Below, piece after piece: positions 2,385 through 37,480 of a DNA stretch of 40,937 nucleotides. The notes beneath the pieces are model-generated. The model did no database searches. It worked only from the letters and a program-made list of their open reading frames with translations, and was not told where the DNA came from. How positions within the stretch are numbered: position 1 is the stretch's first letter; each line of letters begins with the position of its first letter. Source of the stretch: Gemmataceae bacterium (GTDB lineage: Bacteria; Planctomycetota; Planctomycetia; Gemmatales; Gemmataceae); the NCBI GenBank assembly GCA_035575035.1, contig DATLYH010000335.1:1-40937 (forward strand), given 5' to 3'. Position numbers and translations under genes: made by a program.

Positions 2385-2549
2385 TTGCTTCGTTCCCCTC
2401 TTGAATCCCATCGCCAATGTCCTGATTCTCCCCGGGAACGACTGCCCGTCCATGTCCGTTCCGAATCGCCCGTTGTGTGTGGAAATCCGGTCAAAGACCG
2501 GCCCATTGTCCCATCGTCTCTGTGAAGTTCTCAAAAGGAGAACAGGGTC

Positions 2550-2738
2550 ATGCGCAAGTTCGCACAGCACGTCGTTGAGTTCCTGAAGCAGGAAGACGGC
2601 CCGACCGCGGTCGAGTACGCCGTCATGCTGGCGTTGATCATCGTCGTCTGCCTGGCGGCTATCGGCACGCTCGGCAACAACGCCAACGCCACCTTCACCA
2701 CCGTCGGCACGGCTGTCGGCAGCACCACCGGCAGCTGA
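2550..2738 (+). CDS. flp: Flp/Fap family type IVb pilin (Tad pilus major subunit)
   Basis: 62 aa protein MRKFAQHVVEFLKQEDGPTAVEYAVMLALIIVVCLAAIGTLGNNANATFTTVG. It has a short leader, the G/XXXXEY prepilin motif, a hydrophobic helix and a Gly/Thr-rich tail. A strong RBS AAAGGAGAA lies 8 nt upstream. Confidence 0.8.
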   Translation: MRKFAQHVVEFLKQEDGPTAVEYAVMLALIIVVCLAAIGTLGNNANATFTTVGTAVGSTTGS

Positions 2739-6783: not shown

Positions 6784-6836
6784 CCGCTTGCAGCTTAGTG
6801 CTCGCCTCGCCGAGGCGAGCACTAAGCTGCAAGCGG
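6784..6836. repeat. near-perfect 53-bp palindrome (26-bp arms) between convergent genes; REP-like / bidirectional terminator-like; member of the GCTAAGCYGCAAGYGG family
   Basis: CCGCTTGCAGCTTAGTGCTCGCCTCG c CGAGGCGAGCACTAAGCTGCAAGCGG read directly. It lies between the stop of the 4147..6774 gene (6774) and the stop of the flotillin gene (6849). Confidence 0.8.
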
Positions 6837-9656: not shown

Positions 9657-10955
9657 TCAGCCGCTGCGGCGAAGGCGGCGTTGCTCGCTCTCCCGCAAGA
9701 CCTGACGGCGATAGACCGCTGTCCGCTCGTACAACGCCAGGAAAAAGTCGGCGTGCTGCTCCGTCCATTCCTGCCCTCGCCGCCGCAGCACCGCCGCCGC
9801 CGTCGTGAACAACTGCCGGAAGTCCGCCCGGTCCTGCAACTGCCCGTGCCAGACACTGCAAAACGCCGGCACCTCCTTCGGCAACAGCGACCCCGACGCC
9901 AACAGGTGGCCGAATGGACCCACTGCTGTCCCCGTGTTCACCAACACTCCTAACCCCGTCTTGCTGTGGTCTCCGAGGAACGCCCCCACCTTGGTCAGAC
10001 CCGTGTTCACCTTCCGACCAGCCACCGGGACCGTCACCGGCCCATAGTCATTCCGCAGGTCGCTTATTTGGGTGCCGGCTCCCAGGTTGACCCACTCCCC
10101 CACGTAGCTGTGCCCCACAAAACCATCGTGCGCCTTGTTGCTGTAACCGTGGATGATGCTGGCCTCCACCTCGCCGCCGACCTTGCAGCACGGCCCCAAC
10201 GCACTGGACCGCACCCGCGCCCCCAGCACCTGCGTCCCTGCCCCCACATAGCAAGGCCCCTCCAACACGCTGAACGACCGCACCACCGCCCCCTGGTCGA
10301 TCAGCACCGGCCCGGCCGTGGTGTCGATCGCCACCAGCGGATCGAGCCGGGCCCCGGTCTTCACCACCAGCCGCTCCCGCGGCCCTACTACTGCTGCCGC
10401 CGACGGCACACCGTGGCCCTTCCAGTCCTCATAATCCTGCTCTAGCGCCTCCACATTGGCCTCGATCAGGTCCCAAAGGTAGTCGATCATCCGGCCGCCG
10501 GCCGCCCGGACCGGCAGACGTTGCCGACAGCTCTCGATATAGTCGGCCACCGCCGCAGGGGAGCCGTCGGGCAGAGGCTCGGGCGGCAGGGCCACATAGG
10601 CGACCTGCTCCCCCACCAACCCGATGTGCGGCGACCGCGGCGGCGGCACTGTCCCGGCCGGCGGCAGCCAGCGGGCGTTGACCAGCAGCCGCGTCCCCGC
10701 CGCCAGCCCGTCCTCGAACCGGCCGGCTAACGCCGACCGCTCGCCCCGGCCGTTGACACTCAATTCGGGATGCAGGAGGGCGGTGAACGCGGCCAGGAAC
10801 GGCCGCACGACGACGCTCACCGCCGTGGCGGCCGCGTAGCGGCGCTGCCGGTCCAACAGCGACGCAGCGCCGCACCGCAGGTCGAAGGCCGGCCGGCTCA
10901 GGGCCAGCGGCTCCAGATTCTCCACGCCAAGATCTTCATAAACCACGATACGCAT
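9657..10955 (-). CDS. GlmU-like putative sugar-phosphate nucleotidyltransferase / acyltransferase with left-handed beta-helix (hexapeptide) C-terminal domain (alt_bact_glmU-like family)
   Basis: Start trimmed to the ATG at 10953-10955 (MRIVVYEDLGVENLEPLALSRPAFDLRCGAASLLDR). This N-terminal pattern resembles the alternative bacterial GlmU-type family. The C-terminal half has tandem hexapeptide-like repeats (VGAGTQV, LGARVRSSALGPCCKVGGEVEASI, VGEWVNLGAGTQ). It sits immediately downstream of glmS in the same orientation. Confidence 0.55.
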   Translation of the reverse strand: MRIVVYEDLGVENLEPLALSRPAFDLRCGAASLLDRQRRYAAATAVSVVVRPFLAAFTALLHPELSVNGRGERSALAGRFEDGLAAGTRLLVNARWLPPAGTVPPPRSPHIGLVGEQVAYVALPPEPLPDGSPAAVADYIESCRQRLPVRAAGGRMIDYLWDLIEANVEALEQDYEDWKGHGVPSAAAVVGPRERLVVKTGARLDPLVAIDTTAGPVLIDQGAVVRSFSVLEGPCYVGAGTQVLGARVRSSALGPCCKVGGEVEASIIHGYSNKAHDGFVGHSYVGEWVNLGAGTQISDLRNDYGPVTVPVAGRKVNTGLTKVGAFLGDHSKTGLGVLVNTGTAVGPFGHLLASGSLLPKEVPAFCSVWHGQLQDRADFRQLFTTAAAVLRRRGQEWTEQHADFFLALYERTAVYRRQVLRESEQRRLRRSG

Positions 10956-22813: not shown

Positions 22814-22848
22814 GTAGAGCCAATCTCCTGACGACGCAGACGTATCGC

Positions 22849-22921
22849 AGCCGAAGCCGCTCGACGGCGGGCACACCACTACCCGAAAGTCGGGCGGCTT
22901 CGGCTACGAGCTGCACCTTTT
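22849..22921 (+). terminator. leuS terminator candidate (12-bp stem with 33-nt loop, then T-run)
   Basis: AGCCGAAGCCGC...GCGGCTTCGGCT followed 12 nt later by CTTTTT. Confidence 0.35.
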
Positions 22922-23858: not shown

Positions 23859-24207
23859 AGTAGGCTCCTATCGTGATGGCCCGCAATGGGGCCGAGCTTA
23901 ACTCTACCTCGGCCAACTTCCTCGTTCGGGATCGGCATCAGCCTGCGCCGAATCGTGGACAGCGGGCAGGGCTGGCCGAGGGTCATCCCCTGCCCGAAAA
24001 AAGAACGTTCGCCGGACCTGAACTTGCGCGGACAGCACAGATGGGGTTGGAACAGCATGGCAGGTCGCAGGATCCTGCCGCAGAGCCCGAAGCGTCCGCG
24101 ACGGGTTGACGGTGCCCGTCGCGGACGTTCCAGGCTCGTAGGAACATCGACCCGTCGCGGACGTTCCGGGCTCTGACAGTACACGCTCCGGGCTCGGACC
24201 CAGGCGC

Positions 24208-33244: not shown

Positions 33245-33257
33245 CCGCGAGCCACTG

Positions 33258-33298
33258 GCGGCTAAGCCGCAAGCGGCTTAGCCGCTTGCGGCTTAGCG
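33258..33298. repeat. REP-like compound palindrome (GCTAAGCCGCAAGC / GCTTGCGGCTTAGC), same family as 6784..6836 and 25869..25888
   Basis: GGCGGCTAAGCCGCAAGCGGCTTAGCCGCTTGCGGCTTAGCG lies immediately after the adh stop. Confidence 0.75.
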
Positions 33299-34470: not shown

Positions 34471-35859
34471 ATGGCGACCGTCGAGACGACCCAGGAAAAG
34501 ACTGGCCTCGGCAATTACTTCGTGGCCAACTACCCGCCCTTCTCCTTCTGGAAGCCGGCCCATCTCCCCGCCGCGCATGCCGCCCTCCAGTCGGCGCCGA
34601 AGCCCGACACGCCGCTTGGGCTGTACCTGCACATTCCGTTTTGCCGGAAGCGGTGCAAGTTCTGCTATTTCCGCGTCTACACCGACAAGAATGCCCGCGA
34701 TGTGGAGACCTATACCGAGGCGCTAATCAAGGAAGTCGAGCTGTACAGCCGGCTGCCGGCCGTGGGCGGTCGGCCCTTGCACTATGTCTACTTTGGCGGC
34801 GGCACGCCGTCGTACCTGAGCGCGACGCAGCTTCGCGGGTTGATGACCCGGCTACAAGCGATCATGCCGTGGGATCAGGCGGAGGAGGTGACTTTCGAGT
34901 GCGAGCCGGGCACCCTCCAGCTGCACAAGTTGGAAACGCTTAAGGAAATGGGGGTCACTCGGCTGAGTCTCGGCATCGAGAACTTCGACCCGAAGATCCT
35001 GGAGTTCAACGGACGGGCCCATCTGGAGGAAGAGATCTACCGGGCGATGGACTGGGCCCGGCAGGTTGGCTTTGACCAGATCAACATCGACCTGATCGCC
35101 GGCATGGTCGGTGAGAGTTGGGACAACTGGCGCGAGTGCGTCCGCAAGACGCTGGCGCTGGCCCCCGACAGTGTTACCATCTATCAGATGGAGTTGCCCT
35201 ACAACACCATCTTCTCGAAGGAACTGCTTGGGAAAGATGAAGGCAGAAGGATGAAGGATGAAAAAAGACCCGGCGACGGTTCTTCCCTGCATCCTCCCTC
35301 TTTTATCCTTCATCCGTTCCAGGTTGCCGACTGGCCGACCAAGCGGGCCTGGGTCAGCTACGCCTTTGACGAGTTCCTCAAGGCCGGCTACGAGATCTCC
35401 AGCGCCTATACAGTGGTCAAGAGCCGCCAGCGCTGCCGCTTCGTTTACCGCGACAGTCTCTGGCACGGCGCCGACATGTTCGGCACCGGCGTCGCCTCGT
35501 TCGGCCATGTTAATGGCGTCCATATCCAGAACGTGGACCAGTGGGAGCCGTACATCGGCCTGCTTCAGAAGGGGGAATTGCCGCTGGGCCGCGCGCTGCC
35601 GGTCGGCCCGCGCGAACTCCTCATCCGCGAGATGATCTTGCAGCTGAAGACAGGCCAGCTCGACGCCGCCTACTTCCGGCGGAAGTTCGGCGTGGATATA
35701 CTACAGACTTTTGCGGAGGGCTTCGGCCGGCTGGCCGAGGAAGGGTATCTGACCGTGGGCGAAGATGGCGTGGAACTGACCCGTCAGGGGTTGTTGCAGG
35801 TGGACCGCCTGCTGCCGACCTTCTTCGAGCCAGAGCACCGGGGGACGCGCTACACCTGA
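34471..35859 (+). CDS. radical SAM enzyme of the HemN/HemW (oxygen-independent coproporphyrinogen-III oxidase-like) family, carrying an in-frame ~27-aa insertion
   Basis: CRKRCKFCYF (CxxxCxxC), GGGTPSYL, and HemN-like distal motifs (LSLGIENFDPKIL, QINIDLIAGM). A HemN_C-like C-terminal domain is present. See the repeat at 35236..35316 for the insertion. Confidence 0.8.
   Translation: MATVETTQEKTGLGNYFVANYPPFSFWKPAHLPAAHAALQSAPKPDTPLGLYLHIPFCRKRCKFCYFRVYTDKNARDVETYTEALIKEVELYSRLPAVGGRPLHYVYFGGGTPSYLSATQLRGLMTRLQAIMPWDQAEEVTFECEPGTLQLHKLETLKEMGVTRLSLGIENFDPKILEFNGRAHLEEEIYRAMDWARQVGFDQINIDLIAGMVGESWDNWRECVRKTLALAPDSVTIYQMELPYNTIFSKELLGKDEGRRMKDEKRPGDGSSLHPPSFILHPFQVADWPTKRAWVSYAFDEFLKAGYEISSAYTVVKSRQRCRFVYRDSLWHGADMFGTGVASFGHVNGVHIQNVDQWEPYIGLLQKGELPLGRALPVGPRELLIREMILQLKTGQLDAAYFRRKFGVDILQTFAEGFGRLAEEGYLTVGEDGVELTRQGLLQVDRLLPTFFEPEHRGTRYT
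35236..35316. repeat. 81-bp AT-rich, inverted-repeat-bounded insertion (MITE-like) lying in-frame inside the HemN-like CDS
   Basis: GATGAAGGCAGAAGGATGAAGGATGAAAAAAGA cccggcgacggttcttccctgcatcctccc TCTTTTATCCTTCATCC. The terminal inverted repeats GGATGAAGGATGAAAAAAGA and TCTTTTATCCTTCATCC flank a spacer. GC content is far below the flanking CDS. It encodes ...KDEGRRMKDEKRPGDGSSLHPPSFILHP... in a loop between conserved HemN motifs. Confidence 0.6.
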
Positions 35860-35862
35860 TCA

Positions 35863-35917
35863 GAGCCGCGAGCGTCAGCGAGCGTTGAGACGCCCCGCTC
35901 GCTGACGCTCGCGGCTC
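35863..35917 (+). other. perfect 22-bp-stem RNA hairpin in the 76-nt spacer between the HemN-like and gcvH-like genes (no U-tract)
   Basis: GAGCCGCGAGCGTCAGCGAGCG-ttgagacgccc-CGCTCGCTGACGCTCGCGGCTC. The stop of the upstream gene is at 35859 and the start of the downstream gene at 35936. Confidence 0.8.
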
Positions 35918-35935
35918 GGACACGGTCTGCACCGA

Positions 35936-36406: not shown

Positions 36407-37480
36407 ATGAGCCGTCACCGCCTCACCGTCGTGCTGTCACAGGCCCCGGGCAAGAATCCGACCAAGCGGGCGCTGGAGGAAAGCATCGTCGCCGCCCTGA
36501 TCACCGAGCCGGGGTTGGATGTGTCGGTCGTTCCCTACCTCTACGACCTGGACGCCAACCATACCGGCCGACTGTTCCTGGAGTCGATCACCGGCGACAT
36601 GGTGGTGCTGGCCTGGATGTTTCCGCGGGCAGCGTTCTGGGTCCTGGACCGCGACGGCATCAAGGGACACTTCGGCGAGAGCCGCCTCAAGCCGCCCGCC
36701 GCCGATGATGACGAGGAAGACGGTGAGCCCGAGCCGCCCCGGGGCATTGGCTCTGTCAATGTGCCGGACCGGTACATTTACTGCCTCGACCTGCGCGACT
36801 TCGCCAGCCATGAGCCTTATGTCCAGGAAGTTCGGCGGATCGCCGAGGAGTGCCGGCAGCGGTACGAAGCGAAGCAGCGGGAGCGGGCCCAAGCCAACCC
36901 GCCGCTGGTGCAGCTGGGCCTCTCGGTGCGGGCCGACGAGCCCCCCTCACCCCCACCCCTCTCCCCCGCGGCGGGGGAGAGGGGGAGGGGTGAGGGGGCG
37001 CCGCATTTCAAGCCCGAGGATCTGCTGAAGCCGCCGGAGCGCCGCTGGTATCCGGTTATCGACTACAGCCGCTGCACCAATTGCATGGAGTGCATCGATT
37101 TTTGCCTGTTCGGCGTCTACGGCGTGGATCAATTCGACCGAATCTTCGTCGAGAATCAGGACAACTGCAAGCGCGGCTGTCCAGCGTGCAGCCGGGTCTG
37201 TCCCGAGCATGCCATCATGTTCCCCGACTACAAGACGCCGGCCATCGCGGGGGCGCCGGTCGGCGGCATCAGCGGGTTGAAGATCGACCTGACGAAGCTG
37301 TTCGGCGGCGATGACGCCATCAAGATCGCCGCCGCCGAGCGCGACCGCGAGCTGATCAAGGACGGCCGGCAGGCAGTCGGCCTGACGGTCGGCATCCCCA
37401 AGCGCCAGGCCGCCAAGCCGCAGCAGCCGAAGGATGATCTGGACAAGCTGGTGGACTCCCTGGACGCGCTGGATATTTGA
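36407..37480 (+). CDS. two-domain protein: N-terminal domain of unknown function + C-terminal 2x[4Fe-4S] ferredoxin-like domain; contains an in-frame GC-rich palindromic element in the linker
   Basis: CTNCMECIDFC (CxxCxxCxxxC) and CKRGCPACSRVCP (CxxxCxxCxxxCP). The linker ...ADEPPSPPPLSPAAGERGRGEGAP... is encoded by the palindrome at 36943-36998. Confidence 0.6.
   Translation: MSRHRLTVVLSQAPGKNPTKRALEESIVAALITEPGLDVSVVPYLYDLDANHTGRLFLESITGDMVVLAWMFPRAAFWVLDRDGIKGHFGESRLKPPAADDDEEDGEPEPPRGIGSVNVPDRYIYCLDLRDFASHEPYVQEVRRIAEECRQRYEAKQRERAQANPPLVQLGLSVRADEPPSPPPLSPAAGERGRGEGAPHFKPEDLLKPPERRWYPVIDYSRCTNCMECIDFCLFGVYGVDQFDRIFVENQDNCKRGCPACSRVCPEHAIMFPDYKTPAIAGAPVGGISGLKIDLTKLFGGDDAIKIAAAERDRELIKDGRQAVGLTVGIPKRQAAKPQQPKDDLDKLVDSLDALDI
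36943..36998. repeat. GC-rich palindromic element, copy A: CCCCTCACCCCCACCCCTCTCCCCC-gcggc-GGGGGAGAGGGGGAGGGGTGAGGGG. Four G-tracts give G-quadruplex potential. It lies in-frame inside a CDS.
   Basis: 25-nt arms are reverse complements with 2 mismatches. The right arm has a G5-N3-G5-N1-G4-N3-G5 pattern. Confidence 0.85.

Follow-up and report, generated by a model that had tools for sequence, protein, structure and literature searches.

Palindromic repeats inside coding sequence are usually treated as something peculiar to Rickettsia, apart from scattered intragenic repetitive extragenic palindromes (REPs) in other bacteria. The Rickettsia palindromic elements (RPEs) are described in the passages of PMC10969869 that summarise Ogata et al. 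(2000, 2002). A REP is defined as a 20-40 bp palindrome with a GTAG or CGTC tag at one end (PMC3733652), REPIN/RAYT systems have been described (Bertels & Rainey 2011, PMC3116915), and GTAG/CGTC REPs have been reported within genes of Opitutus, Thauera, Thioalkalivibrio and others, especially repair genes such as uvrA (Di Nocera et al. 2013, PMC3733652). Two heptamer-based repeats are also on record. Short tandemly repeated repetitive sequences (STRRs) are 7-bp tandem units able to form hairpins in cyanobacterial intergenic regions, with function unknown (PMC2670836), and TAACTGA heptamers form direct repeats in Beggiatoaceae, Cyanobacteria and Bacteroidetes (PMC4679880). [quoted passage not shown] Here we analysed a 40,937-nt contig of a Gemmataceae bacterium (GenBank assembly GCA_035575035.1, contig DATLYH010000335.1; the window hereafter), in which an 81-base hairpin-forming repeat runs in frame through a HemN-family radical SAM gene. 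This segment is very probably one copy of a dispersed, non-coding, hairpin-forming heptamer repeat family, which we call the GGATGAA family, acquired at a permissive connector of the host protein. It is one short repeat family with a near-invariant arm, found in free-living bacteria of several phyla.

The element spans 35235-35315; in it, a 17-nt loop separates four heptamers of the GGATGAA type from five degenerate ones of the TTCATCC type. Its parts and surroundings are as follows, where L121 to L125 are orthologues of the host gene.

34471-35859, + strand: HemN-family radical SAM host gene, 462 aa, Radical_SAM at residues 53-225 and HemN_C at 380-442 (open reading frame (ORF) list, Pfam)
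35227-35234, + strand: outer stem half CTTGGGAA, pairing with 35317-35323 (minimum free energy structure)
35235-35262, + strand: left arm, four heptamers AGATGAA GGCAGAA GGATGAA GGATGAA (sequence, heptamer-array finder, comparison with 122 copies)
35263-35279, + strand: loop AAAAGACCCGGCGACGG with a small internal stem (fold), not common to other copies
35280-35315, + strand: right arm, five degenerate units TTCTTCC c TGCATCC TCCCTCT TTTATCC TTCATCC (inverted repeats I1, I2, I4 and I5; fold)
35316-35323, + strand: right junction, a G followed by the outer stem half TTCCAGG at 35317-35323 (sequence, fold, orthologue alignment)
35331-35340, + strand: right half CTGGCCGACC of a native 10-bp inverted repeat (empty-site DNA of L123; folds of L122, L124 and L125)

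The translation KDEGRRMKDEKRPGDGSSLHPPSFILHP runs in frame within the ORF 34471-35859, and RPGDGSSLHPPSFILHPFQVADWPTK is an example of a host-protein peptide that crosses the insert. The left arm codes for (K)DEGRRMKDE in the sole frame of that arm without TGA. The right arm encodes SSLHPPSFILHP, and its complementarity to the left arm is achieved partly by G-U pairs. A preliminary description of the window had reported an in-frame, AT-rich segment bounded by inverted repeats in a HemN-family gene, and the sequence, a repeat finder and the fold all agree with the repeats: GGATGAAGGATGAAAAAAGA lies at 35249-35268 and TCTTTTATCCTTCATCC at 35299-35315, and the finder places arms at 35249-35263 and 35301-35315 with 93% complementarity. 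The extra GATGAAGG direct repeat mentioned there is present as well, but is in fact the 7-nt periodicity of a tandem-heptamer arm; the finder's 14-nt direct repeat (35232-35245 and 35246-35259) equals two heptamer units. As to composition, the element has 49-51% GC, which ranks it within the lowest 1.7% of 81-nt windows. The contrast is sharpest in the GC content at third codon positions (GC3), which is 0.47, against 0.85 in the host gene on both sides of it. The low GC of the segment stands, but the whole gene has 62% GC and not the roughly 70% once given. The region 35225-35325 (101 nt) folds into one long hairpin. Its stability is -44.5 kcal/mol as sense RNA (z -5.0, with none of 200 shuffles as stable), -40.5 kcal/mol as antisense RNA (z -3.5) and -15.9 kcal/mol as single-stranded DNA (z -1.9). 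The element's 20-mer occurs once in the window even when 3 mismatches are allowed, with 0 expected from 100 shuffles.

The evidence for a family comes from a scan of one genome per species (596 Gb) with the pattern GGATGAAGGAT-N30-60-ATCCTTCATCC. This arm-loop-arm pattern matches at least 120 unrelated loci, and by our own estimate (22 fixed bases, 31 spacings, 596 Gb) chance would give about 2. All family figures below (122 copies, 98 testable copies, 873 kb and 2575 ORFs) and the statements on carriers and loops rest on these matches listed. The carriers are metagenome-assembled genomes (MAGs) labelled as Acidobacteriota (Pyrinomonadaceae, Blastocatellia, Thermoanaerobaculia, Chloracidobacterium), Planctomycetota (Gemmataceae, Planctomycetaceae, Pirellulales, Tepidisphaeraceae, Phycisphaerae) and Chloroflexota (Anaerolineae, Ardenticatenaceae, Oscillochloris), and further as Burkholderiales, Chthoniobacterales, Hydrogenedentes, Ignavibacteriota and Armatimonadaceae. 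The arms of all copies are heptamer runs, (GGATGAA / GGCGGAA / GGATGAG)n on one side and (TTCATCC / TTCCGCC / CTCATCC)n on the other, around a variable loop. They are near-identical across phyla, and the loops are lineage-specific. Canonical copies have near-perfect arms of 20-40 nt as terminal inverted repeats and measure 52-134 nt between paired ends. Across the 873 kb we counted 133 forward and 139 reverse heptamer arrays, 130 of them paired within 120 nt. In some MAGs, 8 kb hold several copies, and the 873 kb yielded about 10 extra ones.

The window's copy fits this family closely. Its left arm together with three 5' bases (35232-35261, AAAGATGAAGGCAGAAGGATGAAGGATGAA) matches the frequent arm AAGGATGAAGGCGGAAGGATGAAGGATGAA at 28 of 30 positions, and the GGCGGAA-type unit takes the same position in both. 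Seven Pyrinomonadaceae copies, in either orientation, have their arms, the loop ...AATGCTGCTC-N-CTTGAAAGCTTTTAC... and the outer ends AAGAGCAAGG...CCTTGCTCTT in common, but their flanks are unrelated; copies of a Burkholderiales sub-family have loop ends of their own, GGATGACC...GGTCATCC. When arms were swapped between copies, the folding energy was -0.457 kcal/mol/nt for the chimeras and -0.483 for the native pairs (p = 0.0015). Because arms can be swapped with so little loss, the arm sequence itself is conserved and not merely the ability to pair. This folding comparison was used in place of an anchored, gapless test of arm-to-arm compensation, which is uninformative because the heptamer registers slip.

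Searches with other tools gave the following. An exhaustive HMMER search with the 34-aa peptide of the window gave 7 matches at E<=0.001, a number that says nothing of the abundance of the element because the query is short. Rfam returned no gathering-threshold match to the element, in the window or at 18 loci, and only sub-threshold miRNA-like noise with E up to 10. Full-text literature searches on the DNA string and the peptide motifs gave nothing relevant.

Several variants were met beside the canonical copies. The widest spacing seen is that of a variant copy in a Hydrogenedentes MAG (L005, 105-328), whose arms are 167 nt apart. A 79-aa metagenome protein (P0121) contains a tandem duplication of the whole element with its flank (KKDEGGRMKDEESMT.RGRLILHPSSLILHPFERP, twice). 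A 'hypothetical protein' of the cyanobacterium Stenomitos frigidus ULC029 (P0165, 6.3-Mb contig) is made of SSFILHP-type repeats; this protein sequence suggests that the family is present in Cyanobacteria also. One Pyrinomonadaceae locus with three GGATGAA elements (L084) has Acido-Lenti-1 RNA at 2401-2448 (-) and 2547-2594 (+), both above the gathering score, in inverted orientation and about 100 nt apart.

The position of the copies relative to genes follows a simple reading-frame logic. As read from the sequence, (GGATGAA)3 has TGA in all three frames and (TTCATCC)n is free of stop codons. Where GGCGGAA takes second place among the units, one frame becomes open and reads KDEGGRMKDE. An open frame of at least 150 codons ends at or just inside an edge in 83% of the 98 testable copies, compared with 16% of positions drawn at random from these loci, and such frames are found at both edges in 44% of copies and 1% of controls. 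This points to copies sitting mostly at gene 3' ends and between convergent gene pairs. About nine of the 122 copies lie within long ORFs, five of them confirmed by Pfam domain matches to either side of the element: in TsaD, where the domain is split at residues 139-165; in UvrA (L062), between UvrA_inter and UvrA_DNA-bind; in the inter-domain linker of a GT4 glycosyltransferase; in a NACHT NTPase; and in a Ser/Thr kinase-WD40 protein. A MurD fragment also has an in-frame copy, between the P-loop region and GGNIG. All in-frame copies share one reading, KDEGGRMKDE...SSFILHP, as the stop-codon logic predicts. The family is thus found at gene ends and in frame within the essential enzymes TsaD, MurD and UvrA, in addition to this radical SAM enzyme. 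A word-index search with the consensus peptide returned almost only 'hypothetical proteins' of 30-80 aa made of SSFILHP repeats, which are miscalled intergenic copies, and yielded no census of host genes. For annotation, KDEGGRMKDE...SSFILHP, or a tiny 'hypothetical protein' of SSFILHP repeats, should be taken as the signature of a repeat copy and not of a gene feature.

We then compared the host protein with its orthologues. The gene has thousands of relatives; identity is 73-87% for the best 120, most of which measure 439-442 aa. We delimited the connector as the stretch from FSKEL to ADWPTKR. It measures 8-11 aa in 110 of 122 orthologues and 32 aa in the window. The empty site of L123 reads ...CTG CGC CTG GTC GGC CAG GAC GAG CCG GCT CTG GCG GTC GCC GAC TGG, and the window has CTG CTT GGG, the element and then G TTC CAG GTT GCC GAC TGG. 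The left outer stem half (35227-35234) spans the junction codons L253-G254, in place of the native ...LVGQ, and the right junction spans codons F283-Q284 and the first base of V285, directly before the conserved VADWPTKR. Most of the native connector (LVGQDEPxxx, about 11 codons) has been lost from the window, where 32 codons stand instead. The indel proposed in the preliminary description was borne out by this alignment, but the 27 added codons amount to a net gain of about 20-22 since the native connector was mostly replaced. The alignment shows a secondary acquisition of the element by this genome's lineage; the site is the variable connector that joins the radical SAM barrel to the C-terminal part of the HemN-like enzyme.

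The predicted structure is in line with a tolerant site. In the AlphaFold model (predicted template modelling score 0.81), the confidence per residue (pLDDT) falls below 50 for exactly residues 255-282 (codons 35233-35316), which form a coil flanked by helices 247-256 and 288-304. Where the preliminary description had expected a surface loop, the model has a low-confidence coil between two helices. In E. coli HemN (PDB 1OLT), the insert region corresponds by alignment to the segment that follows the last strand of the barrel. The 28 encoded residues are predicted to be a disordered, floppy loop, which fits a fold left undisturbed.

The same connector has been hit more than once. Orthologue P0002, known as a protein only, has the GGATGAA family at the connector (KELRE-KDEGGRMKDEKTPLPLHPSSFILHPS-EVADW). 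Orthologue L127, known as DNA, reads ...QKDSP-KDEGGRMKDE, then a 49-nt loop, then HPSSFSPHPSA-VADW; it has canonical arms, retains the native QKDSP and folds at -62 kcal/mol, and its loop and junction differ from those of the window. A metagenome search with perfect arm cores beside ADWP gave no match; a looser pattern gave L127 as a true match, and L126 and L128 as chance matches. By identity outside the connector, the nearest relative of the window is P0001 (87.6%), which has an ordinary short connector without the element, and P0002 (77.1%) and L127 (71.0%) rank 120th and 121st of 121. Since L127 is the most distant and has a different loop and junction, it at least represents an independent event. 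The window and P0002 have degenerate right-arm features in common (LHPxSFILHP), and a link between their elements by common descent or transfer is possible. As the 110 orthologues are without any insert, recurrent acquisition explains the pattern and not conservation. The preliminary description had named a conserved insertion of similar length and sequence in unrelated lineages as evidence against its proposal. Similar inserts at the site do exist in P0002 and L127, but for the reason just given we read them as recurrent acquisition.

Other sequences occupy the connector too. L122 has an unrelated perfect GGAGAAAAAGGGGTYAGACCCC hairpin (z -7.4), L124 an unrelated CCCCTCACCCC...GGGGTGAGGGG palindrome (z -6.6), and L125 a short non-palindromic insert; further insert classes appear at the protein level in P0015, P0058 and P0071. 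The connector of L121, another Gemmataceae orthologue (10754-10876), holds an in-frame (GTCGGCA)4 array (z -4.2). With native GTCGGCC as its evident seed and native TGCCGA across the connector as its pairing partner, the array looks like a heptamer expansion in situ and not an import. In orthologues with the empty site, a native inverted repeat GGTCGGCCAG / CTGGCCGACC brackets the connector (fold z -1.8); its left half is gone from the window. The folds show that the inserts of L122, L124 and L125 are nested within this native stem. The connector could be a hotspot in which any insert is tolerated, or one in which the native stem-loop attracts hairpin elements, and the data leave this undecided. 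Such a repeatedly struck site lends itself naturally to the question of whether existing stem-loops are targets of hairpin elements or these just survive in permissive loops.

The case of L121 raises the question of whether the window's hairpin might likewise have grown from the native connector by heptamer slippage and palindrome formation, with no import. There is some ground for it, as the L121 array is clearly seeded at the same site, the native connector contains GGACGAG (one mismatch from GGATGAG) and lies within a native stem-loop, and, among long simple repeats, those of heptanucleotides are reported to lead in abundance in most bacterial genomes, with slippage of the polymerase given as the cause (Mrazek 2007, cited in PMC4679880). 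We nevertheless regard growth in situ as very unlikely. The left arm agrees at 28 of 30 positions, including the order of unit variants, with an arm that other phyla carry at no fewer than 120 unrelated loci, the GC3 of the element is unlike that expected for growth from local sequence, and L127 has canonical arms at the same site with another junction. The recurrence in P0002 and L127 also bears on the idea that the palindrome arose artificially during sequencing or assembly, for instance from a chimeric or fold-back read in the contig. Palindromes are prone to assembly artefacts, yet the same family stands at the same site in these independent assemblies, the frame is preserved with junctions compatible with coding, and copies are found within Mb-scale contigs, some deposited as complete chromosomes. 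An artefact is therefore extremely improbable.

A role for the element under selection also has to be weighed, either as an mRNA hairpin acting through ribosome pausing or through RNase III cleavage that uncouples operon expression, or as a charged/hydrophobic interaction linker. The hairpin is stronger on the sense strand (-44.5 against -40.5 kcal/mol), partly by G-U pairs that are A-C mismatches on the other strand, and the open frame through the element is kept in three lineages at this site. A precedent is that cyanobacterial STRR heptamer hairpins were proposed to stabilise transcripts or couple translation (PMC2670836). However, 110 of 122 orthologues dispense with the element and other carriers hold unrelated sequences there. 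Disorder is predicted for the encoded residues, the right arm shows decay, and Rfam gives no match. A selected module seems unlikely to us. Some other candidates were rejected from a reading of the sequence and general knowledge. The R''/R' GTT...AAC ends of an integron attC site are missing and there are no cassette arrays; an intron or intein does not fit, the element being too small, without Rfam match and with an open frame; translational bypass lacks an in-frame stop; and the GGA motifs that a CsrA sponge would expose are paired.

For an imported family member, the following course of events can be proposed. The family would spread non-autonomously in a REP- or MITE-like way, probably by means of an enzyme that acts in trans and recognises the conserved arm or the hairpin. 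Selection would purge most genic landings and leave copies at gene 3' ends and a minority in tolerant loops. Copies at gene 3' ends could serve as terminator or mRNA-stabiliser hairpins, and arm lengths may shift by heptamer slippage. In the window, the element persists owing to the TGA-free frame of its left arm and a length that keeps the downstream frame, and to a permissive connector loop in which its 28 residues are a predicted disordered excursion. Our confidence in any particular mobility mechanism is low. A bolder version, which we regard as tentative, would make the family an undescribed cross-phylum class of small elements, whose arm is held constant by a conserved trans-acting partner, which prefers existing stem-loops at the ends of genes as well as within them, and which acts as a bidirectional stop-and-terminate signal when intergenic. 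On that version, the preference for stem-loops would account for the same connector being struck independently in at least two or three lineages. Also, only copies with a correctly placed GGCGGAA would be readable as protein, because uninterrupted arms carry TGA in all frames in both directions. Either way, the question arises of what keeps a 30-nt arm constant across phyla without a known mobilising enzyme.

Several points weigh against the interpretation of the segment as an acquired copy of a mobile family. The comparison of DNA sequences indicates that the event at the window's connector is a replacement and no clean insertion, so a target-site duplication cannot be read there. The flanks of 7 copies of the same subfamily contain no consistent direct repeat that could be such a duplication. 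No transposase-like or other gene family recurs among the 2575 ORFs near 120 copies, a weak test covering 8-kb neighbourhoods only, and no arm pairs 0.3-4 kb apart that would indicate a composite element were found near the listed copies. BLAST against plasmids and phages gave no carrier, though low-complexity masking may hide matches. The 41-kb window has one copy only, and it is from other genomes that several copies are inferred for this organism. Almost every carrier is a MAG, and phylum labels of short contigs may be wrong; the labels are safest on contigs of 0.27-8 Mb (Acidobacteriota, Planctomycetota, Chloroflexota). The gene 3'-end statistic is partly built in, because the TGA codons of the arms end incoming frames. 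Finally, the right arm is degenerate, and the window's copy may be old and no longer mobile.

Among the described systems, the family works like RPEs and intragenic REPs. RPEs and the GGATGAA family are both short, palindromic and dispersed, are often (in RPEs) or at times in frame in unrelated housekeeping genes with a conserved peptide at fold-compatible sites, and have no identified transposase. RPEs are, however, about 100-150 bp long, confined to Rickettsia and without tandem heptamers, whereas the GGATGAA family measures 52-134 nt, has heptamer arms, occurs in several phyla and is mostly intergenic. We set it apart from RPE-1 to RPE-10 by hosts and not by sequence comparison. With REPs it shares a location mainly after genes, between convergent or co-directional ORFs, families that span phyla, and occasional in-frame copies that 'decorate' proteins, notably UvrA. 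Unlike in REPs, the common arm AAGGATGAAGGCGGAAGGATGAAGGATGAA has neither GTAG nor CGTC, and each arm is periodic and longer, at about 20-40 nt. The 8-kb neighbourhoods of copies contained no RAYT-type gene, though this test is weak.

The 7-nt periodicity in both arms and the hairpin are as in STRRs. Units of the latter are CCCCAGT, TTGGTCA and the like, whereas those of the present family are GGATGAA, GGCGGAA and GGATGAG. STRRs are described for heterocystous cyanobacteria, and the STRR passages covered here report no obligatory inverted-pair architecture and no protein-coding copies. Going by the title of a 1997 paper by Vioque, they reportedly also lie inside a functional gene, that of RNase P RNA. 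The TAACTGA repeats resemble the present family in that one heptamer is common to distant phyla with no evident transfer mechanism, but those lie immediately upstream of start codons in direct orientation, one inverted case aside, whereas GGATGAA arrays come almost without exception as inverted pairs and sit at gene 3' ends. MITEs have in common with the family the terminal inverted repeats, the small size without own coding capacity, probably the many copies, and the occasional in-frame fusions. A MITE is, however, defined by target-site duplications and a parent insertion sequence with the same terminal repeats, and neither was found for the GGATGAA family. These points argue against filing the family as a MITE, or, without the tag, as a GTAG/CGTC REP. 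The label 'MITE-like' in the preliminary description was apt for a foreign, compositionally deviant mini-element with inverted repeats, but a strict MITE is not established. In-frame palindromes and heptamer hairpins were already known; the unit sequence of the family, its inverted-pair form, its cross-phylum spread and its coding copies were not found described. The heptamer-built family across phyla, the replacement of the native connector and the connector as a recurrent landing site go beyond what had been noted for this segment.

The host protein itself matches Radical_SAM (2.5e-24) and HemN_C (7.2e-07) in Pfam, its CRKRCKFC motif (CxxxCxxC) is invariant in the orthologue alignment, and its residues 37-448 align to E. 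coli HemN (1OLT). It reaches none of the NCBIfam equivalog cut-offs for HemN, HutW, HemW and HemZ (HemN 191 vs 325, HemW 156 vs 205). We therefore leave its substrate unassigned. The gene is the first of a conserved cluster, followed by a GcvH-like gene (153 aa) and a gene for a Fer4-motif protein (about 340 aa), and this order is also seen in L121, L122, L123 and L125. In L122, L123 and L125, a squalene-hopene cyclase lies 0.7-0.9 kb downstream of the cluster.

A different palindrome interrupts the third gene of the cluster in the window.

36942-36998: GC-rich palindrome CCCCCTCACCCCCACCCCTCTCCCCCGC g GCGGGGGAGAGGGGGAGGGGTGAGGGGG, in frame in the Fer4 gene (36407-37480), 28-nt arms, 93% complementary

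The protein gains about 16 aa from it (PPSPPPLSPAAGERGRGEG), which the L121 and L123 orthologues lack, and L125 has a shorter, different insert there. The same kind of GC-rich palindrome fills the HemN-like connector in L124. The element in the radical SAM gene had been called a second, unrelated family of mini-insertions tolerated in coding sequence. This is correct, and the palindrome in the Fer4 gene is the other one, presumably the first family that this wording implied.

The window is rich in unrelated hairpin repeats, of which it holds several. One base past the stop codon of the radical SAM gene and before the GcvH-like gene, 35860-35920 contains a palindrome TCAGAGCCGCGAGCGTCAGCGAGCG ... 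CGCTCGCTGACGCTCGCGGCTCGGA with 25-nt arms (96% complementary), which by its sequence looks like a REP or a terminator. A three-arm palindrome set with a common GAGCCCGAAGCGTCCGCGACGGG lies at 24081-24175, a perfect palindrome with 26-nt arms at 6784-6836, a nested palindrome (GCTAAGCCGCAAGCGGCT) at 33250-33297, and a further long palindrome at 22845-22909.

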